DNA from: Escherichia phage BAU.Micro_ELP-22
Length of the DNA stretch: 64,000 bases
Direction: 5' to 3' (one strand)
Sequence record: OR699282.2
Positions 21,857 through 52,548 of this stretch are shown one piece after another; position 1 is the first letter of the stretch; the number at the start of each line of letters is the position of its first letter. Position numbers and translations under genes: made by a program. The notes beneath the pieces are model-generated. The model did not search any database and had not been told where the DNA came from. It saw only the letters and a list, made by a program, of their open reading frames with translations.

Positions 21857-21943
21857 TTAAATATTTCCTCAGAATAGATTTATATGATGTATTTATTTTA
21901 GTTAAAAGAAAAGGCCAAGCATAGACTTGACCTTAATATGTTA

Positions 21944-23680
21944 TTAAACTACAGAAACTCCACTCATTGAAGGTGGAACGATTTGTTCAGCAATTAATAA
22001 TAAATTAGTTACTGTAAACTTACCACCATGTGACATTAACGTAATAGGTGTTCCATTAGTTACTAGGTTACCATTTTCATCAACACTTAAAAATGTATTA
22101 AATGAAATAGTATCAACCGTGATAGTTGGTGTTCTAACTTGATTGATATTATTAAATTGAGTATTTGTAAAATTAATAGCAAAACTCATATTAGACGAAC
22201 TAGTAGTCCATGTACCGTATATATTTAATTTGAAATTTAGAGAGGAATTGAAATTATAAACATTTAACTTATTACTTGTTGTATTGAAGAAACTATCTAG
22301 TGTTCCACTAGTGGGTGTGAATGATTTAAGTATTTGAATTAAATTTTGTTCAATTCCATCAGTGAATTGTATATTTAAGTTTGAATAATATAATTCTCTT
22401 TTTCGACGAATTAGGTTAGTAGTATTATTACCATTAACAAATAATCCAGTACTATCTGATGTTAATATATTACCAGAGGTATTACTGATTTTAGATGAAA
22501 TTACATTAGCGTCAATAGATATACCATTTCCCGCAGTATATGAGGATGGCCCAGATGGAACATACAACCCATTTACGTCAGTTGTTAACGTATTTCCTGG
22601 CGTTGTGCTTATTTTAGTTGAAATTGTTTCAGAACTAATAGATATACCAGTACCACCAACGTAATTTATTCTTGTATTAGGTACAAATAATCCAGTACTG
22701 TCAGTAGATAGTATATTACCAGAAGTAGAACTAATTTTAGTACTGATTACTTCACCACTGATAGAAACACCGGAACCAGCACTATAAGATACTGAATTAT
22801 CAGGCACAAATAAACCATTACTTGTAGAAGATAGTATGTTTTCTGATGTCGGGTCAACCTTCACACTTATTACATCATCACTAATTGAAATTCCATTTCC
22901 TCCATTATAAGTAATTGAGCTATTAGGTACGAATAATCCATTAATATCTGATGTTAGTATATTACCAACAGTAGAACTAATTTTAGTACTTATTTGGTCA
23001 TCACTAATAGTAATGCCAGTACCAGCATTATAAGTTATCGAATTATCCGGCACGAATAGACCAGTACTATCAGTTGTAAGGATATTTCCTAAAGATGTGC
23101 TTATTTTTGATGATATAATATTATTATCTATTTTAATACTTTCACTACCTGTATATGTTACGGTATTATCAGGTACATATAAACCATCTTCGGCAATCGT
23201 GAGGATGTTACTAGGTGATGTACTGATTTTAGTTGAGATAGTATTATCACTTATTGATACACCCGTGCCACCAGAATACACAATTGAGGTATTAGGTACA
23301 TATAAACCATTAGCATCAGATATCAGAATATTTCCAGAATTTAAACTCACTTTAGCAGATATAACATTTGTATTAACATCTATACCATTTCCAGCTACAT
23401 AACTTACAGTATTATCAGGAACATACAAACCATTAGAATCATTACTAAGAATATTGCCTTGTGTTGAACTTATTTTTGTGGATATTAAATTAGAAGATAT
23501 TGATATACCAGTTCCACCTTGATAGTTAATAGTATTATCTGGAACATATAAACCATCACTTTCATGAATTAAAATATTTTTATTTTTAGTACTAATATCA
23601 GGCACTGGTATCTTGCCTATTAGTTCGCCGTCATAACTGATATCACCATTTACAATAATATCTGTTCTTATATTATACAT
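21944..23680 (-). CDS. tail fibre protein with about eleven tandem ~35-aa repeats
   Basis: Repeats of ...ISTKISSTxGNILTxDSxGLFVPDNSxxYxxGxGISIS...; ORF-track start 23704 is TTG, first ATG with SD at 23680. Confidence 0.55.
   Translation of the reverse strand: MYNIRTDIIVNGDISYDGELIGKIPVPDISTKNKNILIHESDGLYVPDNTINYQGGTGISISSNLISTKISSTQGNILSNDSNGLYVPDNTVSYVAGNGIDVNTNVISAKVSLNSGNILISDANGLYVPNTSIVYSGGTGVSISDNTISTKISTSPSNILTIAEDGLYVPDNTVTYTGSESIKIDNNIISSKISTSLGNILTTDSTGLFVPDNSITYNAGTGITISDDQISTKISSTVGNILTSDINGLFVPNSSITYNGGNGISISDDVISVKVDPTSENILSSTSNGLFVPDNSVSYSAGSGVSISGEVISTKISSTSGNILSTDSTGLFVPNTRINYVGGTGISISSETISTKISTTPGNTLTTDVNGLYVPSGPSSYTAGNGISIDANVISSKISNTSGNILTSDSTGLFVNGNNTTNLIRRKRELYYSNLNIQFTDGIEQNLIQILKSFTPTSGTLDSFFNTTSNKLNVYNFNSSLNFKLNIYGTWTTSSSNMSFAINFTNTQFNNINQVRTPTITVDTISFNTFLSVDENGNLVTNGTPITLMSHGGKFTVTNLLLIAEQIVPPSMSGVSVV
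22460..23600 (-). repeat. in-frame tandem coding repeats (~105 bp unit, about 11 copies)
   Basis: Periodic peptide repeat visible in the translation of 21944-23680. Confidence 0.6.
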
Positions 23681-23700
23681 ATATTTTTCCTTATAATGAA

Positions 23701-23728
23701 ACAAAAAAAGGTCAACTATTGTTGACCT
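23701..23728 (-). terminator. rho-independent terminator (minus strand)
   Basis: AGGTCAAC-tatt-GTTGACCT with a T-tract on the minus strand. Confidence 0.55.
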
Positions 23729-23735
23729 TTATTAA

Positions 23736-24515
23736 TTAACGTATACGTTCAGGAATATCAATACCTTCATATACCCAAATTGCAGCTTGTTGTGCTTTAT
23801 AAATTGCATCAGGATCTAAATCATCAACCGCATCAATTGCAGAACACTGTTTATCACATTCGGTAAACAATTGCTCAATCATTGCAAATGCTTCAGTATA
23901 TAGTTGTGTCATTTCAGCAGCAGATAATTTAACAATTGCATCATCAAGAAAAATAGAAACACTTTCAGAGCCTGAAGTGACTTGTGTATAATAATTAAGA
24001 AGCATTTGACGACCAGACATATCAGTACTGTAACGATGACCATTGAACATATAACCAGAATTCATACGATTTGTACGTTCTGATATAGTTCTTGCTTTTA
24101 AATCAGCTTTAACATCTGCTATTGGCATATCAATATAATGATATGTTTTAAGAACAGTTAGTGCTTTATATTCTTCGGTAGCGTCTTCTAAAAATTCAAC
24201 AATAGGTTGATTTTCATCTTTTAATTTAATAAACTCCAACGGTTGTTCAATAGCATTAACATTTCCAACATTTTTATACACTAACCACCAAAAACCTTCT
24301 TCTTTTCTAACAGCATCATTAGGTTCTACTGGGGAACCATCTTTACTTGAAATACCATAAAGAGTTCTAATATCACTATAAAGATAACGATAGGTTTGTG
24401 GATCTTCTGGTGTTGCACCAGGACGTTCTTTAAGTCCTTTTACACCAATTGGATTGGAAATAATGTTTCCCAATTCATAATTTTCTTTTGAATTTCCTTT
24501 CACATATGTGAACAT
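23736..24515 (-). CDS. hypothetical protein (within the fibre locus)
   Basis: ATG start with GAGGT SD; no motif. Confidence 0.4.
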   Translation of the reverse strand: MFTYVKGNSKENYELGNIISNPIGVKGLKERPGATPEDPQTYRYLYSDIRTLYGISSKDGSPVEPNDAVRKEEGFWWLVYKNVGNVNAIEQPLEFIKLKDENQPIVEFLEDATEEYKALTVLKTYHYIDMPIADVKADLKARTISERTNRMNSGYMFNGHRYSTDMSGRQMLLNYYTQVTSGSESVSIFLDDAIVKLSAAEMTQLYTEAFAMIEQLFTECDKQCSAIDAVDDLDPDAIYKAQQAAIWVYEGIDIPERIR

Positions 24516-24579: not shown

Positions 24580-27500
24580 TTAAGCTGTACGTTGTGCAAT
24601 AAACATATCTGCTACTGGACTCACACCGTCATAAATGACTTGGTAAATGGTCACACTACCAGCAGTTTTGTTTAGAGTTCCATCAACAACCGCATAAGTA
24701 CCGTCAGTAGTAAAGTTTCTATTACCTGTTGCATCTTGTTTTACATAAATGTATACTGAAGATGCTTTACCACCACCAATTAGACCAGTGATTGGTGCTA
24801 GAGTTGTATCTTGATCTAGAGTGATAAAGTATACGTTGCTAGTACCGTCTGGGGTCCAAGTACCAGTTGGTGCGATAACAGAAGAAGTTACTTGATTAGG
24901 AATAACATCATATTTTTTAGTAGTTACTGTTGTAGTAGTTAGGTCAGCATTAGTAGTTGTTAATTGACCAGTTACAGTTACATCTTTATCAAATACCGCA
25001 TTTTCTTTGAAAGAAGATGTTGCATTGACAGTTAATGTATCAGCAGCAGCGTCACCTAAAACAACACTACCATTTGCAGTCATTAAACCAGTAACAGTTA
25101 AAGTACCACCGATGGTTGCTGCTCCAGTAACAGATGCACTAGCAAGTGTTGCTGCACCAGAAGTAGTAATGGTAGTTACTGAAGTTGCTGCTAGGGTTGC
25201 AGTACCTGTTGCAGAAATATCACCACCAACAGTTAGGTTACCAGAAGTAATTCCAACGGTTCCAGTAATGTTAGCACCACTTGACATTGTTACTGCACCA
25301 CCAAATGAACCAGTAGTAGTTACTTCAAGGGTGTTCCCTTTTAGTAGACCAGTTGCAGTAATACTTGTACCTGCGGTAATGCTAGTACCAGCAGCAACAC
25401 TGTTGGTTGCAGTTAATGATTTAACAGCTACATCAGAGTTTGCTTGGTTTAGTGTTGCGTTTAGAAGACCAGTTACTGTAAAGTTACCGTTGTTAACTAC
25501 GTTACCATTGATTGTTAAGTTGTTGTTTTGTGAACCAACATCACCAATAGTTGCTGATTTGGAAATCAACTCTGCACCAGAAGTAATGTTACCCGCTGCA
25601 CTAATAGTGTCAGCCGCAACAACTGCATAAGGTTCAATTGTTTGACCACTAACGTCAATATCAGCGTTGATACCACCATCTACACGCAAGGAGCCTGCAA
25701 TGTAAGTATTAGGGAAAATCTGAACTGTCTCTGGTTGATCACCAATTTTAGTACCAATAATAACATCAGAACCAGTTTTAACTGCACCAGAGGTTGTTAG
25801 AGAACCTAAAGTTGTAGCACCAGTTACGCCTAATGTTCCACCAATTGTTGCGTTATTGGTAACTGCTAATGCAGCACCTTCACCATTAAGAGCGATTGAT
25901 GGAGCAGATACTGCACCAGTTACGCCTAATGTTCCACCAATTGTTGCGTTGCCATCTGAATGTAGAGTTGTAGCTACAGAAAGACTGTTAGCAACTACAT
26001 CAGTACTAGCTAAATCCAATGCACCTGGGGTTAATGTACCAGTAATGTTAACATTATTACCAAAGGTTGCTGCACCAGTCACATCTAGTGTAGTACTAAA
26101 TGTACCAGAGGTTGCAGAGATTGCACCTGAATCTAGTGATCCAACAGTTGCTTTACCAGTTACACCTAAAGTTCCACCAACAGTTCCATTTGTGGTTACA
26201 TCCAATGTACCAGTACTTAGTTCTTGTGCGGTTACCTTACCGGATGCAGTAACAGTTGAAGTGGAAACGCCACCAGTTAGAGTACTAGCACCAGTAACAC
26301 TTAATGTGGTTGCAGCAGTTACGCTATTTACGCTAAGATCAGCACCGGATAAGTCCAAACCACCTTCAGGAACAAATACACCCTTAACAGTTAGTTTTTG
26401 TACTGTACTATCACCTGTTACATCCAAGGTAGAAGCAGTTAAACCACCATTCATACTTGCTGCACCAGTAACACCTAGTGTAGTGGTTACAGTAGCACTA
26501 TTAAGTGTTGAACTACCAGAAATATTAGCACTAGGAGCAGTAATAGTTCCAGAATCAACTTGTATACCACCTGCAACAACCTGAATTCCACCAGCATTAA
26601 CTGTTAGTTTACCAGCAGTATTCAATGTATTTGAAACTGTTGTTGCACCAGTTAAAGTTGTAGTACCAGTTACACCTAAGTTACCAGAAATAGATGGACT
26701 ACCTGTAATATTACCAGTAGTTAGTATCAAATCAGTACCTACGGTAGTGGAGCCAGTACTTTCTAGTGTTACACCAACGATGTTTGCAGAACTTAGGTTA
26801 ATAGTACCATCAACAGTTAAGTTACCTTGAACGGTTGCATCACCTAGAGAAGTTAATGTCTTCACAGACACATCAGTTGTGCTAAGATCAATAACACCCG
26901 CAGTTAGTGTTCCAGATACTGCTAAATTACCAGTAATCGCGGTATTTTTAGTAATGGATACATTTTCTGCCGCTGAAGTAATAGAACCAACAGTAAGTAC
27001 ACCACCAACAGTTGCGTTATTAGTTACATTTAGAGCAGTTCCAACACCAGATAGTGTTGCTGACCCACCAGTAATTGCACCTGAGATTGAAGCTGTTGCT
27101 GCTGAAACATCACCAGAAACTACTGCATTTGTTGCATTTAGAGCAGACACTGTTACTTCAGTACTTTGAACTTTAGGTAGAACGTTGATACCTTCTGCAC
27201 TACTAACTGTAATAATACCAGTACTTGTTATAGATTTAACAGATACATCAGCACCACTTAAATCAACTGTACCAGAAACAACAAGATCTCCACCAATATT
27301 TGCTCCAGCGGTAGTAGTAATGGATTTTGCACTTACATCAGTTGTGCTCAAATCAATTGCACCTGGTGTTACTGTACCAGAAACTGTTAGGTCACCAGTA
27401 ATAGATGTATTATTGGAAATAGATACACCATCAACGTTACTAATTGTTGGGGTTTCTACAGAAACTGCTTTAACTTTACCTGAAGAAGTTACGTCAGCTA

Positions 27501-30105
27501 CGGTAGATGCACCAGTAACATTCAAATTAGTAATATTTGCAGTTGTTGAACCAAGGGTTGCAATAGTTGCATCAGTACTTTGAAGTTTAGGTAGAACACT
27601 ACTAATTGTGGATTCATTACTAACAATTGCACCAGTACTAGTTAAAGATTTGACAGTAACATCAGCCGTAGTAAGATCTACTGTACCATTAACAGTTAGG
27701 TTACCACCAATAGTTGCACCAGCAGTAGTAGTAATGGATTTAGCATTAACATCAGTTGTTGCTAGATCGATAGAGCCTGGAATAACTGCACCAGTAACGG
27801 TTAGGTCACCAGTTACATTTGTATTATTGGAAATAGTGACACCACTTGCATTTGAAATGGTTGGGGTAACCAACGATGCAGTTGTAGTTTCACCAGTTAC
27901 AGTTAAAGTTGACCCAACTAGAACAGATGAGCTTGAGTAAATTGTACCCAAATTAGCAGATCCGGAAACAGTTATATCATCAGCATTAACAGTAGTTGCC
28001 GTTATGGTAGTACTATTAAGTACTGGAAGTACGTTAGCATTAACAAGATCATTACTTTTAACAATACCAGAAGTAGTTAATGATTTAACATTAAGGTCGG
28101 CTGCTGATAAATCAAAAGAGCCTTGAACTACTAAATCACCACCAATAGTTGCACCAGCAGTAGTAGTGATTGATTTAGCATTAATATCGGTAGTGCTCAA
28201 GTCTAGAGAACCAACAGTTAAGCTACCAGTAATATCAACATTTTCTGTAAAGTTAGTATTACCACTAATAGTTGGTGCAGTCAGAGTTGTTGCACTAATA
28301 TTAGTACCGTTAATTGTTTGCCCACTTACAGTTCCACTCGCAGTGATAGTAGGAGCCGTTACTTCAGTAGATGCACTAATTGTTGGTGCAGATACAGAAG
28401 TTGTACCAGTAATAGAACCAGAACTTACTGAACCAGCGGATAATGCACCAGAAAGAGTTGCAGTTGTACCAGCAATATCACCAGTAACAGTTAGTTTAGC
28501 ACCCACGGTAGTGTTACCAGTACTTTCAAGTGTTGCACCTTTAATATTTGCTGCCGCGACAACAGAATTAGGTGTTAGATCCTGACCACTAACATCAACA
28601 GTTAGTCCAGTTACTGTTCCAGTAAATTCAACATCATTAAGAATTGCTTTACCACCAACTTGTAGGAATGGTGTACCTGGAGCTTGTGTTTCGTTACCAG
28701 TAATAGTTAGGTAATCTAGTTTGTTTAGACCGTTACCAGTAATACCATAAGTGGAAAGAGAAGCGTTACCGAAAGTTGCTGTTTTAAGAACGTTCAATGT
28801 AGAAGGAGAAACAACTTCTGATTGAACTTCGTTAGGTAGAATAACTGTTGGGCGTTGACCTGGTGCAGTATATCCAAAACCTAGTTTCACTGCCGCATCT
28901 TGACTATTTTGACCTAAGCTGATAGCTTTAAAGGATGCAGTACTGTTATAACCAGTAATATTAGAACCAAGAGTAACACCACCAACTAATGAAGTTACAC
29001 CAGTAACGTTCAAAGATACTGCATTGATATCGTCTAGTTGGAACGTTCCACCAAGAAGTCCAGAAACATTAATGTTATTAAAATTAGCAGTACCAGTACT
29101 TTCGATATTTGGAATAGTTGCAGTTCCGGTTACTTCAAAGTCCGCAACTTTAGTTTTGCCTTTTTGAACTTCTAATAGTGGTGTGTCTGGTGATTGTGTA
29201 TTGTTACCAGAAACTGTTAGATAATCTAATTTGTTTAGACCATTACCAGTAATACCATAAGAAGATAATGACGCATTACCAAAAGAAGCAGAGGTCAATA
29301 CTGTCAAGTTTGCAGGTGACATTAGCTCGGACTGAATTTCGTTTTGTAGAATAACAGTTGGGCGTTTACCAGGAGCAGTGTAAGGGAAGCTTAATCTGAA
29401 GGTTTGTGATTCAGAGTTAGAACCAATACGAATGTCTTTAAAAGTAGCAGTACTGTTAATACCAGTTACGTTAGCACCGAAAGTTACTGCACCTTGTTGG
29501 TTAGATGCACCAGTAACGTTCAATGTTACTGCATTTAAGTCAGATAGATTAAACTCACCACCAAGTGTACCACTAATTGTCACATCTTTAAATGTAGCAG
29601 TACCAGTACTACTAATATCTGTTGTACTTACATTAGTAATTTCTGCGGTATTAGCAGTAATTTTATCAAATGCAGCAGTAGTCCCAACATCAGCAGTAAT
29701 ATTACCTTTAAATGCTGTTGTTTCAGCAACTTCTAAGTTTTTAACTTTAGTTGCTTGTAGAGTGGTTGTACCAGCAGTTTGTGTAAAATCAGAACCAACT
29801 GATACAGTACCGTTAAAGGTAGCGTTTGAATTAATTGTTGCTGTATCAGACCCGACAACTGCACTACCGATTGTAGTATTACCCTCAACACCAAGACCAC
29901 CAGAAAGTGTTGCTTTGCCACCTACATCTAAAGTAGATGTAATATTGGCAGTTGATGATTCAATGGCAGTAAAAGTTGCATTTGCAAAAGTTACAGTACC
30001 ATTTACAGTTAGGTTATTATTGAAAACAGCATTTCCTTTGACTAAAAGATCCTTACCAACCGTACCAGCACCAGTAATATCTAAGTCAGTTTTTATTGAG
30101 TACAT
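24580..30105 (-). CDS. giant fibrous protein (1841 aa), probable tail fibre
   Basis: Thr/Gly/Ser/Val-rich beta-rich repeats; GGAGGG SD; internal duplications at two scales. Confidence 0.65.
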   Translation of the reverse strand: MYSIKTDLDITGAGTVGKDLLVKGNAVFNNNLTVNGTVTFANATFTAIESSTANITSTLDVGGKATLSGGLGVEGNTTIGSAVVGSDTATINSNATFNGTVSVGSDFTQTAGTTTLQATKVKNLEVAETTAFKGNITADVGTTAAFDKITANTAEITNVSTTDISSTGTATFKDVTISGTLGGEFNLSDLNAVTLNVTGASNQQGAVTFGANVTGINSTATFKDIRIGSNSESQTFRLSFPYTAPGKRPTVILQNEIQSELMSPANLTVLTSASFGNASLSSYGITGNGLNKLDYLTVSGNNTQSPDTPLLEVQKGKTKVADFEVTGTATIPNIESTGTANFNNINVSGLLGGTFQLDDINAVSLNVTGVTSLVGGVTLGSNITGYNSTASFKAISLGQNSQDAAVKLGFGYTAPGQRPTVILPNEVQSEVVSPSTLNVLKTATFGNASLSTYGITGNGLNKLDYLTITGNETQAPGTPFLQVGGKAILNDVEFTGTVTGLTVDVSGQDLTPNSVVAAANIKGATLESTGNTTVGAKLTVTGDIAGTTATLSGALSAGSVSSGSITGTTSVSAPTISASTEVTAPTITASGTVSGQTINGTNISATTLTAPTISGNTNFTENVDITGSLTVGSLDLSTTDINAKSITTTAGATIGGDLVVQGSFDLSAADLNVKSLTTSGIVKSNDLVNANVLPVLNSTTITATTVNADDITVSGSANLGTIYSSSSVLVGSTLTVTGETTTASLVTPTISNASGVTISNNTNVTGDLTVTGAVIPGSIDLATTDVNAKSITTTAGATIGGNLTVNGTVDLTTADVTVKSLTSTGAIVSNESTISSVLPKLQSTDATIATLGSTTANITNLNVTGASTVADVTSSGKVKAVSVETPTISNVDGVSISNNTSITGDLTVSGTVTPGAIDLSTTDVSAKSITTTAGANIGGDLVVSGTVDLSGADVSVKSITSTGIITVSSAEGINVLPKVQSTEVTVSALNATNAVVSGDVSAATASISGAITGGSATLSGVGTALNVTNNATVGGVLTVGSITSAAENVSITKNTAITGNLAVSGTLTAGVIDLSTTDVSVKTLTSLGDATVQGNLTVDGTINLSSANIVGVTLESTGSTTVGTDLILTTGNITGSPSISGNLGVTGTTTLTGATTVSNTLNTAGKLTVNAGGIQVVAGGIQVDSGTITAPSANISGSSTLNSATVTTTLGVTGAASMNGGLTASTLDVTGDSTVQKLTVKGVFVPEGGLDLSGADLSVNSVTAATTLSVTGASTLTGGVSTSTVTASGKVTAQELSTGTLDVTTNGTVGGTLGVTGKATVGSLDSGAISATSGTFSTTLDVTGAATFGNNVNITGTLTPGALDLASTDVVANSLSVATTLHSDGNATIGGTLGVTGAVSAPSIALNGEGAALAVTNNATIGGTLGVTGATTLGSLTTSGAVKTGSDVIIGTKIGDQPETVQIFPNTYIAGSLRVDGGINADIDVSGQTIEPYAVVAADTISAAGNITSGAELISKSATIGDVGSQNNNLTINGNVVNNGNFTVTGLLNATLNQANSDVAVKSLTATNSVAAGTSITAGTSITATGLLKGNTLEVTTTGSFGGAVTMSSGANITGTVGITSGNLTVGGDISATGTATLAATSVTTITTSGAATLASASVTGAATIGGTLTVTGLMTANGSVVLGDAAADTLTVNATSSFKENAVFDKDVTVTGQLTTTNADLTTTTVTTKKYDVIPNQVTSSVIAPTGTWTPDGTSNVYFITLDQDTTLAPITGLIGGGKASSVYIYVKQDATGNRNFTTDGTYAVVDGTLNKTAGSVTIYQVIYDGVSPVADMFIAQRTA
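27050..28280 (-). repeat. three to four tandem ~135-aa coding repeats inside the giant fibre gene
   Basis: Recurring G(S/A)IDLSTTDV(N/S)AKSITTTAGAxIGGxLxVxG...DLSxADVxVKSxT. Confidence 0.55.
28640..29640 (-). repeat. two tandem ~165-aa coding repeats (~500 bp each) near the N-terminus of the giant fibre
   Basis: DNA around 28690-29160 and 29200-29630 aligns by eye; peptide blocks FGNASLS(S/T)YGITGNGLNKLDYLT and YTAPG(K/Q)RPTVIL repeat. Confidence 0.6.
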
Positions 30106-42546: not shown

Positions 42547-45500
42547 TTACTTAACTAATAATATATTTTTAATATCATTACCACTAACTTGTAGACTATC
42601 AGTGTATACTGAAAGATCTATAGTGTAACTATTTTGTGTGTAACGTTTTAACATATCATAATTACCTAAATTAATTCCATTGAAAGAATATGTAGTATTA
42701 AGTTTAAAATCATGTTCTGCACTATACATTACACCACGGAGTAAATTATTTGCATTTCTAACTTCAACTTTTTCATATCCAATCGATATAATATCATTCA
42801 TGTTCGCGGCTGAACCGGATAAAACATTATTTCTAATACTATAAGGACTTATTGATTTAGGTTGAGAAACATAGGTTGTATTTTCTTCACTAATGGTTGT
42901 GATGTTAGTAACAGTACCCCCAACAACACCGATATACATACCGTCAACCATTGGGAATCCATAAACCCATATCCCTTCATTATTTCTAAACGGTTGAATA
43001 ACACTTGAATCATATTCGATAACGTTGATTTCTAAACTATCAGTCATTTTAGTTCTTGCCAATTCACTAAGAACTCCCGCACCCGTAATTGGTAAGTTAT
43101 AACCGTTATCGATAGTAATTCCATCAACATCAAATATTTCATTGGAGATTATCCAAACGTCAACGTCATCTGGTGTTATTCCGTCATTGTACTTACCACC
43201 ATTTAAAGTAGTATCGTAGAAAACATCATAATTAATTACATCAATGGTGTAATTTCTATTTTGTTCATACAATTTAATACCATTCTTGACAAATTCAGGG
43301 TCAGCAAATGTTCTAACACGAACAATGTTCAATGCTAGAGGCTGTACTGGCTCATTTTGTTGTGCAAGAGTGATGTTATCATAACGGAGAACTGCACCAG
43401 TACTCTCATCAATCAATTCAATCGTTTCCTTACCTGTATTTCTTACAGTGAATAGGATCGGAGTTGTATTGTTTTTGATGTTAGATACACGCAAGATTGT
43501 TTCCCATGTGTGATTTTGATATCTCACAAAATCTTCACCATCAGGAGTGAAAATCATCACCTTATCACCATCAGATAGGTCATTGTCAACTATTTCTGCT
43601 TCAGTTAAGCTATTAATAGATCTCACACGATAGAAATATTTTTCATCAAACTTCGATGTTGTTTTATTAATATCATTTTCAATCTTAGCATATGAAGGAA
43701 TACTTACAATTGCTTCTGTATGTTTATATGGATTGATAATTGCCATACCTTCAGTTTGATATCTGCTGTTATCACGTAATTGTACAAGAGATACATTGTC
43801 AAACCCATATCCATCAACTGTAAATCTAATTTGTCCAACATCACGCCCAGAAGGGTTTATGTCAGATATATCCACAATATAAGGATCAACTTCATCATCT
43901 TTAACTTCCCATTTTATTGAAGAAGTTTGAGATTCCAATGCTAGGTTATCAAATGCATTCATATCATTGAAGTACTTAGCTTCAGTAATACTATCAAGTA
44001 TATATTGATAATCAGAATACATTGGATTATTTTGATCTAGTGGTAAATCATCAAGATTTATTTCAGCTAGTTCAACCATTTCACCATTTGTGATAAAATA
44101 ATCTTCCATGAAATCATCAATACTTTGTTCATCAGGTATACTTTGATATACACCGTTAACATTTAAGTAAACATATTTTCGTGGAATCATTGTAATTGCA
44201 TAGATATCAATTGGGGTCTTACTAAGAATCTCTTCAGCTTTTTCGTACTTATCAGTAGCGTCTTTGTCGAATAACCCTCTCATACCTGCTAATACGTGAA
44301 TAGCATCAGTATAGAAACGGGTATCACCACCTACTTCATCATAACGATAAACATATACACCATACTCAACTTCAAGTTTAACTTTTACTTCATAGTCTGA
44401 TGCGTCAGGATTTTTATCTTTAATTAATGAAATGTATTTTTGATACAATTCACTGCTTATTTCAAAATATCCATAGTTATAATCATTACTAGAAGAAAAG
44501 CCTAATGGAAGTCTAGTACTAGGATTGTCATTATAAGTAAGTCCACTAAATCCACATCCAACTTCATCGTGAATTTTCTCATCACTTATATCTTTATAAA
44601 GTTTCAAACGGTTTGCCAATGTGTTATACTGAACATATTGTCTAAGGTCAGTAAACATATCGTTATGCGTTGATTCTTTATAAACACGTTCCAATGTAGC
44701 AGTGAATTCATCAGTTGCTTCTAAATCTTCCGCATGGTCTTTATACCACTGGTTAACGCCATATGCTGTTCCTAGTGTTACATCCAATTCTGGATAGTAG
44801 ATTTGCATTTGATAAGCAATAAGAAGATCGAAAGTTTCTTCACTATATTCTGGGAAAGAATATATATAACGTTGTAATTCATAGTTACTAACAGCATCCT
44901 TTTCATTGGATTGATATTTGTTATTAACACTTACTAATTCATTTATGCTTGCCAAATCTTCATTTGGTTTACACTGAATATTATCATAATGCATAATAAT
45001 ATCAATTTCTTGGAATCTTCTATTTGGTGTAACGAAATCACTTGGTAGTGAACCTACCTGTTCCCATTTTTGGGTAATTTCATTAAATTGAGCGTACTCA
45101 TAATCCCAAATATCTTTTTCAGTTTTGATCCAAGAACTGTCAACGAAAATATATCCATTAGGATCTAAATCATTACATAGACCTTTTATTAAATCATCAT
45201 CAGATGTCTTTTGCTCTATTTGTGAACGAATTTTAGTTCTATAAGGTTTAACTTCTTCAAAATATTCAACAATTTGATTAATCAAATTATCGTTTGAATA
45301 GTTTTGAACTAATGATTGTTCCAAACCAACAATATAGATATATGATGTTTTAAATACCCAATCCACAACACTTTGTTCAACATGTACATATTTGACCATA
45401 TCAAAAACAATTTCGCTTTGATGTAAATCGAAAGAATTTTTGAGTAAAGCTAGTGCTTTACGAACGTTGATTTCACGATTGCTTAGTGAACCATTATCAT

Positions 45501-48500
45501 TATGAACACTATAATCTGCGTAAAGCATATCATTGAGTTCAACTGTACTGTTTTCACGACCAATCGCTTTCCAATAAATTGAATCGCGTGATTGTGATTT
45601 AATATACAATGTCCAAATGTTTTCACTATCGGTAACTCTGATAATATCGCCAACTTGGTAGTTTTTAGTATTAGCATCTTCTAAGCTTGACTCTTGAGTA
45701 TAAGTCGTGTTACTATCATATCCAACATCATACCAATCAGCATATGACCAGTACTGAGTCATGTCTAATGAGGTTCCTAGTGATTCAACATAATCAGATT
45801 GTTTAATCATTTTATGTTGTCCCTCACCTTTGTTTTCTAACGTTATAGTAACAACACTACCCGCGTTTGCTGGACTATTCATTAACTGAATATATCCATT
45901 TTCGTCGAAGTGAATAAAATAAACAGCACTAGAAGTTAATGGATTTGGTAGATATCCACTAGTACTTAAAATAACAGCGTCATTTTCTTTAAATTTATCA
46001 CTTTCAACTGCAATAACTAATTCATTATTGTAAGACAACACACGGAAAGAAACTTCATTAGGGTTAACTTCAGTGGTTTTAACATTAAACACATCTTCCA
46101 TAACAACACTATTAGTGGTTATGTTTTGTGACCTATAATAATTATTAGCACTTTCTACAAAGTTTCTACGAGCTTCTATAACATTTTGGAACCAAGTTTT
46201 GTTTGATCCTAAACCGTTATCAACATCTGGATATAATAAATTAATCACAGAACCTGATTCAGTTGTTTCTTGACCAATTAGTGAGTTCCACATTGAATCC
46301 CAAATTAGTGGGTTAAAGTTATAGCTGTCACCTTCTTTACATAGTTGATACTGGTCATGTTTAACAACTTCAGTACTATCCATGTAATAAGAAACAGTTA
46401 AAATACTGGTATCATCATTCACTTTAAATTGCATATTACTAAGAATAAACGAGTTTTCATTTATTGGAGCGAACCAAGGAATGTTTAGCTGTGTTGGATC
46501 TTTAATAATACGAGCAATGTCAGTACATGATTTCGTTCTGGTATGTAGTGGTGGTACATAAATTGTATCACGTACCCAGAAATAGTATTTTGTCACATAA
46601 CTATCAGTTGAACTATCATATTCCAAAAATGTACTATAATTATCTTCAAGTGCAGTTCCACTTGGTAGATACATAGTATTATTTTTGTTTTTCTTAGCAA
46701 CATCTTTACAGTATTTGTCCCAGTTATATGGCTCAACTGGTGAACAAACCCACTCTAACACATCAATGGTACTATGTGGCAACAAACGGCCCCAGTTGTA
46801 ACGTTTGTATTCATTGGTTGCATCAATATCAACATTACCGTCTGCGTCATAAATTGCACGAGTATAATCCAAATAAAATGCAGTGCTAGTGTTCCACCAT
46901 ACTTGACCAACTTTATCAGCACCCCAAGCCTGGATTAACTCTCCATTACTATTATACTGTGCAGGATCAACTGGTGAAGTATATGTTACGTTTTGCATAG
47001 CCGCACCTGGAATAACACCATTAATTGGGTCATAAACATTTAGATATAGCTCAGTAATGTTAGTACGTTCATCATATGTCGTTGGACGATCAAATAAAGT
47101 ACTTTGTGGTGCTTTAAAACTATATTTCTTGTCAATGTAAGCTTGACGTTCATCAGTACTGGCAAAACGTGATACATAACGATACAAACGTGGACGTGTA
47201 TCTGGATCAGTAAATTCAATATCAATAGAAGTGTCAAATGGAACTACCATAACTTTAGGATCAGAACCAGCAGTATAATATTGACTTTCTACTGTTAAAG
47301 TATCTGGCATAAAGTTAGTTTCATCAACAAAATAATAATAATCACCATCTTCAAGTGGTACATTATCAGTTAAAGTTACTTTACAAAATTGTTCAGCATA
47401 CACATCGGTATTTTCAATAGGTGTTATAGAAACCATTTGCACATTAGTATCAACCAATTCAAAAATGTTCCACAAACCATTACCGTCTTTAAACATCCAC
47501 ACAGATTCAGGATTTTCACCTTTACCATTAGTATAAGTTATGCGGTCATTATATGCAGTACTGAAATCTTTTGTTGTGTACGATACTTCATCCAATGTTA
47601 CTGGACCAATATCTGGAAGTTGGATGTTTTCACTTCTTCCACTACGCATTGGGAATGAGAACTTACCATTTGGACGTGTAATCCAACGAGGATCTTTACC
47701 TTGCTCACCGAAGTATACAATATGATTACCATTACCATTTGAAGTTGCATTTACATCAAAAGAAACCATTTGAGGTTGTTGTTTAAATTGGTCATTGATT
47801 AGTTTAAATTGAAGGTTTTTCTTACCATCAATATTACCATATGTACCAATTTTAAATGCCCATTCTTGTAATGCTTTATATTCATCAGTGTCATATGATT
47901 TAGAAACACGAAGTACACGTTCTAAAACTTGGTTAGTACCTTTATCGTGAATGAATCCTTTATAGAAATCAACACGACTAACATCACTACTAATCATACG
48001 CTGTAGATAATCACGAGATTGATAACCAATCAAATGGTTTGACAACTCTTGTAATTGTACATCACTTACTGGAGTTTCACTATCATAATAATGTTGGAAA
48101 TCCGACACTAATTTTTCAAATGATGGTAGTGTTCCAGCTTCCAAGATAATAAATCCAGGAGCTTGTAGGCGACCAGTCCATGAACCAGTAATATATCCAT
48201 ACATTTTAATTAGTTCTTGAATAGAACCATATGTTGGCTGATAAATGTAATCACCAAAAATAGTTTTATCATCAAAAATAACAGCATGTTCATATGAACA
48301 CAAACTTAAACGAATCAATGCAATGCGTTTATTAGATTCTAAAGTTCTAACAGTGAAGATATTTCCAATACGAGAAGTTTCAATTTCATATTGGCGAATA
48401 CCTTGGTTATTATCATCAAGTAATGACCATACACCACCATTATTTTGCGTAATAGATTGTACTGAACCAAAGTCTGCCCCAAATTTAGCGTTTGCAGCAC

Positions 48501-51500
48501 TTGGGGTACAAGAAATAAATTCACCAGTTACTAGAGAATTCTGACTCCAGATCACGAAATCTTTAGCAATAGTGTTCCAATCTTGTTGAGCACCACTATC
48601 ATTTACATCTTCAAAAATCCAACCATGTTCTTTAAGATATTCACCATATCCACAAATAAAAGTATAAACTTCTTGGTAACTATTGAAAACTTTACCATAT
48701 TCAATTGAAGCTTCAGACTTCCATTCATTATAATGAACAACATTACGGTTTTCCAATTTAAGAGTTACTTTTCTACCATTTTTTACTGGAAGTTTATATT
48801 TAAATTTAGCACCAACTAGATCATATCCATCAATCTGATATGCACTACCATTCCAAGTAATTTTGATCGCACTCATTTGCTCATCACGGATATTATTAGA
48901 ACGAACAAGACCAATGGTTTGGTTTTCTTGTGAAATAAGACCGAAAGATTTAGCATTGAATGTTAGCTGATCTGCTTTAGTAAATCCTCCAATTTTATGA
49001 CCAACATTTATATAAGAAGAACGAACTACATCCCCATACTTGGTAGTAATATTTTTATTTTGATACATCAAATGGTCACTTACAAACATTTGATAACCAA
49101 TTGTTCTTGTGCTATTTTCACCATGAACTACTGTATTTTTATCAAAATTAATACGCTTACGTGTATCACCATAAAGGAATTGTGAACCATCAGTGAATAC
49201 TTCTTTTAAGTTATCGTTGCGGGTATCCCAGAAATAGTTAGCAAATTGTGCTGGTTTAGCTTTATACAAAAGCATCATTTGGTCATATGCAAACAATGTA
49301 GTGTTCATGTATGTAAATTCCATGTCACCCATATCACCATATGTCCAAGGTTCTGCTCTATGATTTAAAGATCCAGACACTAAACCTAAAATTTCAGGTG
49401 CAATATATTCAACCACACAAATATCAATACCAGAAGATGTTTTATTTCCAGTTTTTGTAATTTTGAATGGCTGTACACCAAATCTTTTATATTTGTCATA
49501 TTGACCACGACGATCACCAAATAAAATAGTTCCAGTACTGCTATCGCCAATAGTTCCGTCAATATCCCAAAGACCACTAGGAACTAAATCACCTTGCTCA
49601 TTCATAACAAGTGCTTCATATACATATACAACATCACTATCACGTTCACCAACTTGAACAGCCGTTGGTTCGTATTCTTGGTTCCACCAAGTTGGACGTT
49701 GTGTAAAGCCAAACATTTCCCACGGATGGGTAGCTGGGCGATATGTACCATATTGGTCAGTGTAAATGGCACGCCATGAACCACGTGCAGGAATTTCAGT
49801 ACTTTGACCATTAACTACATAATAAGTGCCAGTATAGTTCCAAGTTCTCCAATTGTTAGGATCATAATCATGTGTACTATTACTGATACCATTAGTTGCG
49901 GTGAAGTTAATGTATCCACGTAGTAATAATGTTTGTTTCTCTTCAGCACTATATTCAGTTTTAGTGAAATATGGTGTAGGGAAAAGGTCATCACTATTCA
50001 ATACTGGTACGTAATCAACATCTTTGAATTTATTATCAATACTATTAAAAATTCTATTTTCTAATTCATATACAACATCATCCATTTTATCAACACCATT
50101 GATAACACGGTATGCTTTGGAAATAATACCAGTATGACTGATGTTATAACAGCTTGGTTTACTACCAGCAGTGAGGAATGTCGCTTTTTCTGGTACATAT
50201 GCTTGAAGAATACCTAAGAACTGTGGTGTTGGTGGTATAAATGCACGAATGAATCCAGAAGTACTTCCAACATTATCATAATAGAATGGGAATGAACTAT
50301 CACGTCCCATATTAATAGTAGTTAAAATTGCATCAACAATGTTTGCAGCACTATTTTGTAAAAAGTCTGATGGATTTTCATCATACATACGAAGCATTTG
50401 TGTATTAAATTTATTAATGAATCTAAAATATTCAGATTGCATAAACATAGTTGCTTCAAACAAATCAATATCTTCATTTGCAGTATGTGCCATCAATGGA
50501 AGCATAGATGCTTCATTTTGGATAATTTTAGTACCTACGCCATTATTAACCAATCCTTTAGCCAAACGTTCTTCATAGTCATTGAAATCATCAGAAGAAC
50601 CACGTGTAATGTTCTTTTGAATAATATCCTGAAAATGTAAAGTGTAGTCACCTTGGTTAATGTATATAATATTAGAATTATATGGGTTATTTTGTAGGTT
50701 GATTGGAACTTCATATGCACCTAATTCTTTATTAGGAGTTACAGTACTGCTATAAGTTCTAATTTGAATAACAGAATCTTCATCCAATTCTACAGTACTA
50801 TCTAGAGTGATGCTTTGTACTTGACCTTTTGAAACATTTTTGGTATATTTGGACACATCAACACCATCAACCACAACTTCAATAATATCAGAATCATTAT
50901 CTAAAACTTTTTGTGCCAATTCGAATGTATGGTCATATTTTACAATCTGAACACCATCACCAGTAATTGGATGCCAATCTAGATAAGTTTCACGGTCAGC
51001 TTTATAGTACTGATATGTTCTATCAACTTCAATAACATATGCATACATACCATCAACTGGTTCTTTAAAAACTTCCATATCATAAACAGTACTGAATACA
51101 CGATACATATCAGTACGTTGGACTTGTGGAGTTTGTTTTACAAATTGTTTAGAGTACTCTTCTGAACGAACCCAATCGGTTTGAAGATTCATTTCATTAT
51201 TTTCATCAATAATGTTATAATAGTATAAACCATCAATTTCAACTTCTTTTCCAAGATGGTCATAGGTATAACGTTGGGATTGTAAAAAGTTTTCATAAAT
51301 GTAATAATTATAATCACCAAGTTCAATGTTATATCCATATACACTATCAGTTGCATAGTTGTAATTTATTTTAAAACCAAACAACTCTGAACCTTTAAAG
51401 TTACTTGATGGATATGTAGTACTGTTGTCAAGTTTGATACCATTACGATCATAAAGTTGGAATTTAGGGAATACGTTAACACTAGTTTTTGATTGTGCAC

Positions 51501-52548
51501 GAACCCACAAAGATCCATTCCAGTACATAGAACTATTACCATACTCATTACCTTTAGTGATTAGAACAACATCACCATCTTGAGGTTCACCACTTGGGCG
51601 TGATTCGGTTTCTTCTTCTGGATCTAGTGCTAAACCATAAACACGAGTACCATCTTGCATTTTTTTCACATATACATTATAAATTCTATTGTTTTCACCA
51701 TTGTTACCAATACTGGTGAATAGAATACGCATTCCATCTTGCGGAATAATACCATCAATACGTATACCACTATTAATATCTTTTTGAACGATATCTTCAG
51801 GTTTAATAATATCAGAGAACAGATCAACAGTTCCACGGAATTTTGTACCGTAGTTAATTAGCTCAATATTTTTATTATATTCAATAATTGGTGCACGTGC
51901 ACGAATAAAACGTGAATCTTGCATTAATTCTTCAGTTAATATTGAGCCATCTTCTAATGTTTCACCTAAAGTATACCAAAAGTTTTGTAGTGACCATGTA
52001 TTACCATTAAGTGCTCCACGTTCCATTACAATGTAATCAGGTGAAGTAATATTATAAGAGTTTTTAGTATCCCAAAGATATGAGCTAAAATTGTTCATTT
52101 TATTTGGGTTAATAGCTGGAGTCCATGCATAAAACTTACCGTTGAACAAACGGCTTTCATTATCGGTTAGTGCTCCATAATGATTCATGTATCCAACTAG
52201 ATCATCATAAAATTGAATTGAACGAATTGTCGAATCATCATTTTTTGAGACGTAAGCAGTGGACAACTGATAAAGTTGACGTGCTACAGTACTTTCATGT
52301 AAGAAGATATTACCAGCAGCGGCAGGAGAACCCATATCACCAATATAGCCGTCAACTAATTCGTTTTCAGCCGGATTAAACCATTGTTGAATAACATCAT
52401 CACTGACTTTTTGAATATCTTCTAAGCCTTGCATCCACTCAGGCAATCTTTTAATAAAAAGCTTCTTCTGTACTGCTTCAGCCATCTGTGTAGGTTGAAA
52501 CTTAAAATTATTAGTCATTTTTGGACTCCATATAATTCGTTCATTCAT
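42547..52548 (-). CDS. giant protein (3333 aa), probable baseplate or tail component
   Basis: Uninterrupted 10 kb frame directly downstream of the baseplate-J-like gene; alternative ATG at 52518 has a GGAG SD. Confidence 0.65.
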   Translation of the reverse strand: MNERIIWSPKMTNNFKFQPTQMAEAVQKKLFIKRLPEWMQGLEDIQKVSDDVIQQWFNPAENELVDGYIGDMGSPAAAGNIFLHESTVARQLYQLSTAYVSKNDDSTIRSIQFYDDLVGYMNHYGALTDNESRLFNGKFYAWTPAINPNKMNNFSSYLWDTKNSYNITSPDYIVMERGALNGNTWSLQNFWYTLGETLEDGSILTEELMQDSRFIRARAPIIEYNKNIELINYGTKFRGTVDLFSDIIKPEDIVQKDINSGIRIDGIIPQDGMRILFTSIGNNGENNRIYNVYVKKMQDGTRVYGLALDPEEETESRPSGEPQDGDVVLITKGNEYGNSSMYWNGSLWVRAQSKTSVNVFPKFQLYDRNGIKLDNSTTYPSSNFKGSELFGFKINYNYATDSVYGYNIELGDYNYYIYENFLQSQRYTYDHLGKEVEIDGLYYYNIIDENNEMNLQTDWVRSEEYSKQFVKQTPQVQRTDMYRVFSTVYDMEVFKEPVDGMYAYVIEVDRTYQYYKADRETYLDWHPITGDGVQIVKYDHTFELAQKVLDNDSDIIEVVVDGVDVSKYTKNVSKGQVQSITLDSTVELDEDSVIQIRTYSSTVTPNKELGAYEVPINLQNNPYNSNIIYINQGDYTLHFQDIIQKNITRGSSDDFNDYEERLAKGLVNNGVGTKIIQNEASMLPLMAHTANEDIDLFEATMFMQSEYFRFINKFNTQMLRMYDENPSDFLQNSAANIVDAILTTINMGRDSSFPFYYDNVGSTSGFIRAFIPPTPQFLGILQAYVPEKATFLTAGSKPSCYNISHTGIISKAYRVINGVDKMDDVVYELENRIFNSIDNKFKDVDYVPVLNSDDLFPTPYFTKTEYSAEEKQTLLLRGYINFTATNGISNSTHDYDPNNWRTWNYTGTYYVVNGQSTEIPARGSWRAIYTDQYGTYRPATHPWEMFGFTQRPTWWNQEYEPTAVQVGERDSDVVYVYEALVMNEQGDLVPSGLWDIDGTIGDSSTGTILFGDRRGQYDKYKRFGVQPFKITKTGNKTSSGIDICVVEYIAPEILGLVSGSLNHRAEPWTYGDMGDMEFTYMNTTLFAYDQMMLLYKAKPAQFANYFWDTRNDNLKEVFTDGSQFLYGDTRKRINFDKNTVVHGENSTRTIGYQMFVSDHLMYQNKNITTKYGDVVRSSYINVGHKIGGFTKADQLTFNAKSFGLISQENQTIGLVRSNNIRDEQMSAIKITWNGSAYQIDGYDLVGAKFKYKLPVKNGRKVTLKLENRNVVHYNEWKSEASIEYGKVFNSYQEVYTFICGYGEYLKEHGWIFEDVNDSGAQQDWNTIAKDFVIWSQNSLVTGEFISCTPSAANAKFGADFGSVQSITQNNGGVWSLLDDNNQGIRQYEIETSRIGNIFTVRTLESNKRIALIRLSLCSYEHAVIFDDKTIFGDYIYQPTYGSIQELIKMYGYITGSWTGRLQAPGFIILEAGTLPSFEKLVSDFQHYYDSETPVSDVQLQELSNHLIGYQSRDYLQRMISSDVSRVDFYKGFIHDKGTNQVLERVLRVSKSYDTDEYKALQEWAFKIGTYGNIDGKKNLQFKLINDQFKQQPQMVSFDVNATSNGNGNHIVYFGEQGKDPRWITRPNGKFSFPMRSGRSENIQLPDIGPVTLDEVSYTTKDFSTAYNDRITYTNGKGENPESVWMFKDGNGLWNIFELVDTNVQMVSITPIENTDVYAEQFCKVTLTDNVPLEDGDYYYFVDETNFMPDTLTVESQYYTAGSDPKVMVVPFDTSIDIEFTDPDTRPRLYRYVSRFASTDERQAYIDKKYSFKAPQSTLFDRPTTYDERTNITELYLNVYDPINGVIPGAAMQNVTYTSPVDPAQYNSNGELIQAWGADKVGQVWWNTSTAFYLDYTRAIYDADGNVDIDATNEYKRYNWGRLLPHSTIDVLEWVCSPVEPYNWDKYCKDVAKKNKNNTMYLPSGTALEDNYSTFLEYDSSTDSYVTKYYFWVRDTIYVPPLHTRTKSCTDIARIIKDPTQLNIPWFAPINENSFILSNMQFKVNDDTSILTVSYYMDSTEVVKHDQYQLCKEGDSYNFNPLIWDSMWNSLIGQETTESGSVINLLYPDVDNGLGSNKTWFQNVIEARRNFVESANNYYRSQNITTNSVVMEDVFNVKTTEVNPNEVSFRVLSYNNELVIAVESDKFKENDAVILSTSGYLPNPLTSSAVYFIHFDENGYIQLMNSPANAGSVVTITLENKGEGQHKMIKQSDYVESLGTSLDMTQYWSYADWYDVGYDSNTTYTQESSLEDANTKNYQVGDIIRVTDSENIWTLYIKSQSRDSIYWKAIGRENSTVELNDMLYADYSVHNDNGSLSNREINVRKALALLKNSFDLHQSEIVFDMVKYVHVEQSVVDWVFKTSYIYIVGLEQSLVQNYSNDNLINQIVEYFEEVKPYRTKIRSQIEQKTSDDDLIKGLCNDLDPNGYIFVDSSWIKTEKDIWDYEYAQFNEITQKWEQVGSLPSDFVTPNRRFQEIDIIMHYDNIQCKPNEDLASINELVSVNNKYQSNEKDAVSNYELQRYIYSFPEYSEETFDLLIAYQMQIYYPELDVTLGTAYGVNQWYKDHAEDLEATDEFTATLERVYKESTHNDMFTDLRQYVQYNTLANRLKLYKDISDEKIHDEVGCGFSGLTYNDNPSTRLPLGFSSSNDYNYGYFEISSELYQKYISLIKDKNPDASDYEVKVKLEVEYGVYVYRYDEVGGDTRFYTDAIHVLAGMRGLFDKDATDKYEKAEEILSKTPIDIYAITMIPRKYVYLNVNGVYQSIPDEQSIDDFMEDYFITNGEMVELAEINLDDLPLDQNNPMYSDYQYILDSITEAKYFNDMNAFDNLALESQTSSIKWEVKDDEVDPYIVDISDINPSGRDVGQIRFTVDGYGFDNVSLVQLRDNSRYQTEGMAIINPYKHTEAIVSIPSYAKIENDINKTTSKFDEKYFYRVRSINSLTEAEIVDNDLSDGDKVMIFTPDGEDFVRYQNHTWETILRVSNIKNNTTPILFTVRNTGKETIELIDESTGAVLRYDNITLAQQNEPVQPLALNIVRVRTFADPEFVKNGIKLYEQNRNYTIDVINYDVFYDTTLNGGKYNDGITPDDVDVWIISNEIFDVDGITIDNGYNLPITGAGVLSELARTKMTDSLEINVIEYDSSVIQPFRNNEGIWVYGFPMVDGMYIGVVGGTVTNITTISEENTTYVSQPKSISPYSIRNNVLSGSAANMNDIISIGYEKVEVRNANNLLRGVMYSAEHDFKLNTTYSFNGINLGNYDMLKRYTQNSYTIDLSVYTDSLQVSGNDIKNILLVK

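Follow-up and report, generated by a model that had tools for sequence, protein, structure and literature searches.

Sf6 gp9 and the HS1 needle are podovirus tail needles, elongated proteins that combine a plug domain and an alpha-helical coiled-coil with a knob at the tip. The family to which these knobs belong is already known, as is its presence in large virulent phages, and the solved Sf6-type knobs are obligate trimers (Leavitt et al. 2013, PMC3741392). Here we describe a gene encoding such a knob on a repetitive stalk in a 64,000-nucleotide (nt) stretch of the genome of Escherichia phage BAU.Micro_ELP-22 (sequence record OR699282.2; hereafter the window, numbered from its first letter). 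The C-terminal ~145 amino acids (aa) of its product are 40% identical to the Sf6/HS1 knob and likewise form the tip of an elongated protein; however, an N-terminus of just 24 aa and ten repeats of 41 aa, probably beta-structured, stand here in place of the plug domain and coiled-coil, and the gene is a dispensable one in a jumbo myophage. The phages concerned are members of Asteriusvirus, the 121Q/PBECO4-like jumbo myophages of E. coli, with genomes of ~350 kb, and orthologues of the gene have been in GenBank since 2013 as hypothetical proteins. We consider it probable that the gene's product is a virion fibre of Asteriusvirus, accessory and dispensable, and most likely a homotrimer.

The complete fibre gene is a single minus-strand open reading frame (ORF) that occupies window positions 21944–23680, an interval that the initial annotation had placed correctly, and encodes 578 aa from an ATG start, with the stop codon included. 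Its C-terminus, encoded at 21947–22411 on the minus strand, is an Sf6-type tail-needle knob by several lines of evidence. The Pfam model PF16532 (Phage_tail_NK) aligns to aa 424–566 with a score of 95.6 bits against a gathering cutoff of 27 (E=3.5e-27), which places the domain within the family, and sequence searches against the Protein Data Bank (PDB) returned the knobs of Sf6 (3RWN) and HS1 (4K6B) at E~2e-27. The profile phrog_1030, "tail needle knob", matches aa 258–577 (3.8e-69), a region that takes in about four stalk units as well as the knob. We also built an AlphaFold2 (AF2) monomer model of the protein on a 38-sequence alignment. Over aa 421–570, the predicted local distance difference test (pLDDT) scores of this model, read in 10-residue blocks, are mostly 82–96, with one block at 76. 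Foldseek superimposes the modelled knob on 3RWN with a target-normalized template modelling (TM) score of 0.86 and a root-mean-square deviation of 1.7 Å over 143 columns (E=5e-15), identifying it as a TNF-like jelly-roll; the next-best matches are PRD1 P5, followed by trimers of the TNF/C1q type.

Residue-level comparison extends the likeness to the ligand sites of the Sf6 knob. Four residues, E429, K484, S532 and D534, align with the L-glutamate contacts E146, K200, S248 and D250 of Sf6, and in the family alignment each of them is either invariant or conserved to at least 90%. Leavitt et al. (2013, PMC3741392) found the contacts of the three interfacial L-glutamates to be conserved in every homologue that falls outside the P22-like group. 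The universally conserved arginine is present as R516, and the phosphate-binding Ser and Asn that flank it are replaced by V515 and T517; these neighbours of the Arg are likewise not conserved in homologues outside the P22-like group (PMC3741392). From the solved homologues, we infer that the knob is a homotrimer.

Upstream of the knob lies a repeat array that spans aa 25–418 (22427–23608, minus strand). Nine complete units of 41 aa (123 nt) begin at aa 25, 66, 107, 148, 189, 230, 271, 312 and 353, filling aa 25–393, and a hidden Markov model self-scan identified a truncated tenth that consists of the first 25 residues only (aa 394–418). The array is strikingly regular: ten instances of the anchor G[LI][FY]V, from aa 43 and 84 through to 412, follow one another at a constant spacing of exactly 41 residues and with zero indels. 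Residue identity at an offset of 41 is 0.50 over the array; the best offset in 2000 composition-preserving shuffles averaged 0.139 (standard deviation 0.008), yielding a z of 47. Tandem Repeats Finder (TRF) independently detected a 123-nt period, with 3.7 copies only and 66% matches, because the DNA of the units has diverged. The tandem periodicity proposed in the initial annotation is thus highly significant, with TRF and the unit-profile matches in agreement; its "about eleven" repeats of ~35 aa become nine complete units and one truncated unit with a period of 41 aa, and the consensus string it gave is essentially the one we computed. That annotation also overlooked the knob domain, the true period and the absence of the gene from most relatives.

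The unit consensus, ISTKISxTxGNILxxDSNGLYVPDNxIxYxGGxGISISxNx, is rich in Ser, Thr, Gly and Asn, and seven of its positions (N11, L13, G19, L20, V22, P23 and Y29) are invariant across units. On average the units share 49% identity in protein and 58% in DNA (DNA range 41–75%), and where different units carry the same residue they use the same codon in just 48% of cases. This low DNA identity and limited codon sharing argue that the repeats are old and have been maintained at the protein level.

The initial annotation had suggested that repeat number may vary between isolates, and we find 2, 3, 7 and 10 units at the same locus. The 10-unit allele of the window recurs in a Logan contig with an identical 578-aa product. 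Three phage isolates, PBECO4 (AGC34683.1), UB (AXC36803.1) and CRJP21 (WIL00821.1), carry 7 units in a protein of 455 aa; a 344-kb contig in an E. coli assembly encodes a 3-unit version of 291 aa (P0152); and 11 metagenomic contigs encode a 2-unit version of 250 aa (P0153). All alleles have the same N-terminus and knob, their length steps are exact multiples of 41 aa, and every one of them sits between a gene for a DUF4376 protein and a 654-aa gene beside thyA. Together with the periodicity, this series makes the product a tandem-repeat protein with copy-number polymorphism.

Pairwise DNA alignment located two minus-strand segments of the window that the 7-unit alleles lack. One, of 246 nt (two units), lies at 23188–23433 and has its junction in ATGGTTTrTATGTwCCTGATAATAC, a stretch common to units 2 and 4; the other, of 123 nt (one unit), lies at 22886–23008 and has its junction in ATTAGTGATGA, 11 nt that units 5 and 6 share exactly. 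Both junctions are in register and fall within the best-conserved DNA of the unit, and outside these indels PBECO4 and CRJP21 are 97.6–99.3% identical to the window in DNA. The shorter alleles also contain hybrid units: unit 2 of PBECO4 joins window unit 2 to window unit 4, and in P0153 unit 1 combines window units 1 and 4 and unit 2 combines window units 5 and 10, with crossovers in the stretches coding for GLYVPDN and ISDD. The additional units of the window are not near-copies of adjacent units. The simplest reading of these sequences takes the 10-unit allele as the most complete and derives the shorter alleles from it as deletions by unequal recombination. Of the two mechanisms offered in the initial annotation, slippage or recombination, the hybrid units and in-register junctions favor the latter; because the units share only 58% DNA identity, we picture occasional recombination and not a slippage-prone locus.

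The knob varies in a different manner. In UB, the stalk is 98–100% identical to that of the window and the knob only ~80–85%. Since identity falls exactly at the boundary between stalk and knob (window 21947–22460, minus strand, for the diverged part), the comparison indicates that the knob has been exchanged as a module by recombination at the last half-unit.

A third kind of variation is loss of the entire cassette. The flanks of the window are 99.2% identical to vB_Eco_slurp01 and ~98% identical to 121Q, SP27 and E9.1, and the gene is missing in ~30 Asteriusvirus genomes, including 121Q, slurp01, SP27, E9.1, G17, phAPEC6 and Sharanji. In these genomes, the 259-aa and 654-aa genes are adjacent, and all that is retained of the cassette is its last ~80 nt, comprising the downstream hairpin and leader. 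The fibre gene is dispensable on laboratory hosts. We searched for homologues in a database of 5.8 billion proteins using the last 267 aa as query; the full-length query was swamped by low-complexity matches (4 hits). Among IMG/VR viral contigs, the protein query found no relatives. Diverged metagenomic relatives keep the gene order of long fibre, DUF4376 protein, knob fibre, ~640-aa protein and thyA, with versions of the knob fibre of 206 aa (1 unit) and 408 aa (four near-complete units and two core-only partial ones). Because diverged relatives share this order, the gene looks ancestral at the locus and lost from genomes of the 121Q type. The locus thus combines three kinds of natural change: steps of 41 residues in the stalk, a knob swap and loss of the whole cassette.

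The stalk repeat itself proved to be widespread. No Pfam or NCBIfam model covers it, and NCBIfam yielded no model for the fibre protein or for either of its neighbors; the closest approach to a catalogued family was Adeno_shaft (PF00608), which scored 13.7 bits over one stretch (E=0.051), below its cutoff of 30. A profile built from the nine complete units and searched against 1.84 billion representative proteins produced 381 matches at E<=1e-3, 94 at E<=1e-10 and 13 at E<=1e-30. Independent proteins are matched in multiple copies, for example P0005, a metagenomic protein in which 18 stretches match (E=2e-129). The majority of matches stop at profile position 20–25, which argues that the widely shared element is a core of 23–25 aa. 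This core, xxVKISxxxGNxLxxxxDGLYVP, is found in 381 clusters at 50% identity and recurs in fibre-like proteins of 200–3400 aa at spacings of ~24, 41–43, 46–57 or ~100 aa. Only a smaller group shares the unit's second half, sxxYxxGxGISISxxx.

Structural information on the repeat is sparse. Searched against PDB sequences, the unit profile found nothing significant (adenoviral fibre 8ON5, E=7.2), and a 26-aa core profile gave two borderline matches, each a single copy of the core motif (ADVKLDPDPDNLLSATANGL), in 8FQC (E=0.006) and 9RKV (E=0.028). The former match covers aa 145–164 of chain P1, which is the tail spike gp124 of Agrobacterium phage Milano; the latter covers aa 144–163 of chain M, a putative tail fibre with one borderline copy of the core at the end of its tail-binding module. 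The motif of Milano gp124 also lies at the end of an N-terminal module for tail binding, a position that says little about a multi-copy stalk. These are the only solved structures that may display the local conformation of the motif, and sequence comparison revealed none with a clear relationship to the multi-copy stalk. Matches of the core profile to designed leucine-rich repeats (LRRs) were judged spurious, as they comprise 10–12 residues and ~5 bits per copy.

The AF2 model assigns each unit two hairpin-plus-loop elements per 41 aa. The first hairpin pairs positions ~12–16 with 19–22 (NILTxD..GLFV), and the second pairs positions 35–38 with a strand running from 41 through 3–5 of the following unit (GISIS..xISTK). 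The strands are strictly regular despite the low confidence of the model in this region. Such a two-hairpin pattern is compatible with a trimer resembling a beta-spiral and is no proof of one. The initial annotation had foreseen a repetitive, beta-structured shaft; its repetitive nature is borne out, and its beta structure finds weak support in the regular hairpins, which come with low pLDDT and no confident structural match. We tentatively raise the further idea, one that we consider doubtful on present evidence, that the 23–25-aa core represents a large, uncatalogued and structurally unsolved family of stalk repeats, the 41-aa form of which could build a trimeric stalk akin to a triple beta-spiral, capped by a knob in the manner of adenovirus and PRD1 P5.

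The N-terminal 24 aa (MYNIRTDIIVNGDISYDGELIGKI; 23609–23680, minus strand) constitute a putative virion-attachment segment. The pattern MYxIK(T/S)(D/N)LxVxGxIxFxGxLxGxIPxPxIS is common to 11 knob-fibre relatives of 206–1811 aa, a distribution that fits a docking segment shared by this subfamily, and phrog_33322 matches aa 1–50 (E=1e-8). Within the window, the first ~12 residues, MY(N/S)I(R/K)TD, are shared only with an 1841-aa fibre encoded nearby, a weak similarity for which one comparison reached E=0.005. A lead worth recording is that the N-terminus may be a virion-docking segment whose mode of attachment is shared with the 1841-aa fibre. The longest of the relatives, P0005 (1811 aa), shares both the N-terminus and the knob and has at least 18 units, in blocks that are separated by several globular insertions of ~150 aa.

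Read in the orientation of the gene, its neighborhood comprises the 1841-aa tail fibre, the 259-aa DUF4376 protein, the knob fibre, a 654-aa "structural protein" and, on the other strand, thymidylate synthase. This tail-fibre and structural gene cluster, along with the C-terminal Sf6-type trimeric knob, supports the label of fibre given in the initial annotation. The DUF4376 protein (23736–24515, minus strand), which matches phrog_17968, "virion structural protein", is always encoded directly 5' of the knob fibre; its gene is kept when the fibre is missing and holds the same position in the diverged relatives L011 and L012. It could be an adaptor or an assembly factor. The 1841-aa fibre (24580–30105, minus strand) is matched by phrog_4549 in nine stretches and measures 1959 aa in UB and in the 344-kb contig L009, implying that this neighboring fibre is length-polymorphic as well; TRF found no DNA-level tandem repeat in it. 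Farther along the same strand, a 3333-aa ORF (42547–52548, minus strand) followed by one of 1153 aa probably encodes, with its successor, giant structural proteins of the jumbo phage.

The start of the fibre gene is well defined. The ORF can be extended to a TTG at 23704 (21944–23704), which we regard as implausible, as it would place the start inside the T-run of a terminator-like hairpin upstream. An AAGGA resembling a Shine-Dalgarno sequence lies 7 nt 5' of the ATG (23688–23692, minus strand), the same Met is annotated as the start in the PBECO4, UB and CRJP21 orthologues, and the gene call on the Logan contig agrees; for these reasons, we take the ATG as the real start. The upstream hairpin (23707–23730, minus strand), located between the 259-aa gene and the fibre gene, consists of a 10-bp stem and then the T-run, and a second terminator-like hairpin (21911–21934, minus strand) directly follows the fibre stop codon. 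The two hairpins flanking the gene have AAGGTCAA...CCTT in common. On the plus strand, a 101-aa ORF at 23097–23402 runs antisense to the array; we treat it as a by-product of the repeat, a frame most likely open by chance in sequence that is both AT-rich and repetitive.

We propose that the fibre would be built and act as follows. The knob would nucleate a trimer at the C-terminus, from which three chains could assemble into a thin beta stalk with two beta-hairpins per unit. Unit number would set the length of this stalk and would change when, on rare occasions, diverged units recombine unequally and in register. Docking on the virion may be the task of the short N-terminus, with the baseplate or fibre network as the probable site, and the knob would serve as an auxiliary adhesin or sensor that contacts the host surface.

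Several observations weigh against this proposal. In P22 chimeras, an Sf6-type knob conferred no host specificity and the L-glutamate site was dispensable (PMC3741392), which means that a receptor-binding role is not established for any family member. O157:H7 is infected by phages with and without the gene, giving no obvious link to host range. Virion proteomics is available for phAPEC6 and CBB, phages that lack the gene or for which no knob-bearing protein was reported, and the label "structural protein" in CRJP21 is an annotation only; presence in the virion is accordingly a suggestion drawn from annotation and gene context. In the AF2 model, the stalk has pLDDT values of ~40–55 and a predicted TM-score of 0.36, leaving the hairpin picture weak. 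Finally, we found no promoter of the sigma-70 or T4-late type in the 27 nt between the upstream hairpin and the ATG, so expression of the fibre gene probably depends on read-through or on an unknown phage promoter.

The close homology of the knob to that of the Sf6/HS1 needle raises the question of whether the protein is itself a central tail needle or spike tip, which, like Sf6 gp9, would close off the tail channel and make contact with the outer membrane or pierce it, instead of serving as a peripheral fibre. A weak Foldseek match to the central spike knob of phi812 (E=1.9e-4, TM 0.26) points in the same direction. However, some 30 viable Asteriusvirus isolates lack the gene, so its product cannot be an essential plug or spike. 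Nor does the protein have the architecture of a P22-like needle: it contains no N-terminal domain of the gp26/gp9 type and no coiled-coil shaft, PF16532 is its sole Pfam match, and upstream of the knob neither Pfam nor PDB gave any match. Its phage, moreover, is a contractile-tailed myophage with baseplate genes of its own and not a short-tailed one. We regard a central needle as very improbable. Another role suited to a thin, repetitive and dispensable protein is that of a "hairy" whisker, a filament decorating the sheath or capsid of Rak2-like jumbo phages that entangles loosely with surfaces and is not attached to the baseplate. Both phAPEC6 and CBB have documented hairs of this kind, to which no genes have been assigned, yet phAPEC6 is hairy without the gene. 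The gene also lies among baseplate-fibre genes, next to that of the 1841-aa fibre, with which its product shares the first ~12 residues, and these points make a decorating filament unlikely, if less so than a needle.

Two further alternatives concern the repeats. Close relatives have different numbers of units, with in-register junctions, as would be expected if the gene were a hypermutable contingency locus in which frequent replication slippage between near-identical repeats switches the length of the fibre within a population. The repeats are far from near-identical, however, as judged by their DNA identity (41–75%, mean 58%), 48% codon sharing and the 3.7 copies visible to TRF; the additional units of the window are no recent duplicates of their neighbors, and the 7-unit allele is unchanged in three independently isolated phages. 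A slippage-driven switch therefore has very little to recommend it. The stalk might instead be a monomeric solenoid, LRR-like or a beta-helix, bearing the knob in place of an intertwined trimer. The core GNxLxxxxGLF resembles part of the LRR consensus, LRR designs appear among the matches and the core recurs every 24–25 aa in some relatives. Against this, the resemblance to LRRs is confined to the short, low-scoring matches noted above, and the spacing of hydrophobic residues ahead of the Asn is not the same. AF2 built no compact solenoid, and its low confidence is that expected of a chain dependent on partners; furthermore, the solved structures show the C-terminal domain as an obligate trimer (PMC3741392). 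We find a solenoid scarcely credible. The dispensable accessory fibre, most likely homotrimeric, is the reading we retain.

Fibres decide what a phage touches and infects, and Asteriusvirus jumbo phages have been proposed for E. coli therapy. The locus is a clean natural example of modular fibre engineering. Our literature search found no paper on "needle knob" combined with Asteriusvirus, and none on the regular 41-aa stalk, the exact-step length polymorphism at a single locus or the wide distribution of the unmodelled core. A stalk repeat this widespread, with no family model or clear solved structure, is worth solving. If the trimeric beta-spiral idea were true, the series of 0, 2, 3, 7 and 10 units would constitute a natural test of fibre reach versus adsorption.

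Among known systems, the closest to the fibre are its orthologues in PBECO4, UB and CRJP21, which, annotated as "hypothetical" or "structural protein", have 7 units as opposed to the 10 of the window. Like the Sf6-knob homologues described outside the P22-like group (PMC3741392), the fibre comes from a large virulent phage, has no known function and carries the knob at its C-terminus; unlike them, with N-terminal extensions of at most 143 aa, it precedes the knob with 423 aa that form a regular array and exist as a length series at a single locus. In overall design, it recalls the adenovirus fibre, PRD1 P5 and reovirus sigma1, in which a thin repetitive stalk ends in a trimeric TNF-like jelly-roll knob, and the second half of its unit (NSITYxxGxGIxISxN), with one hairpin and loop per ~20 aa in the model, is reminiscent of the adenovirus shaft repeats. 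The shafts of these viruses differ in their period of ~15 aa, compared with 41 here, and their sequence matches to the present stalk are non-significant; a beta-spiral in this protein is a hypothetical fold. Biologically, this is a fairly ordinary modular phage fibre that leaves current concepts unchanged; should its stalk prove to be a trimeric beta-spiral, it would be the jumbo-myophage counterpart of the adenovirus and PRD1 P5 fibre design.

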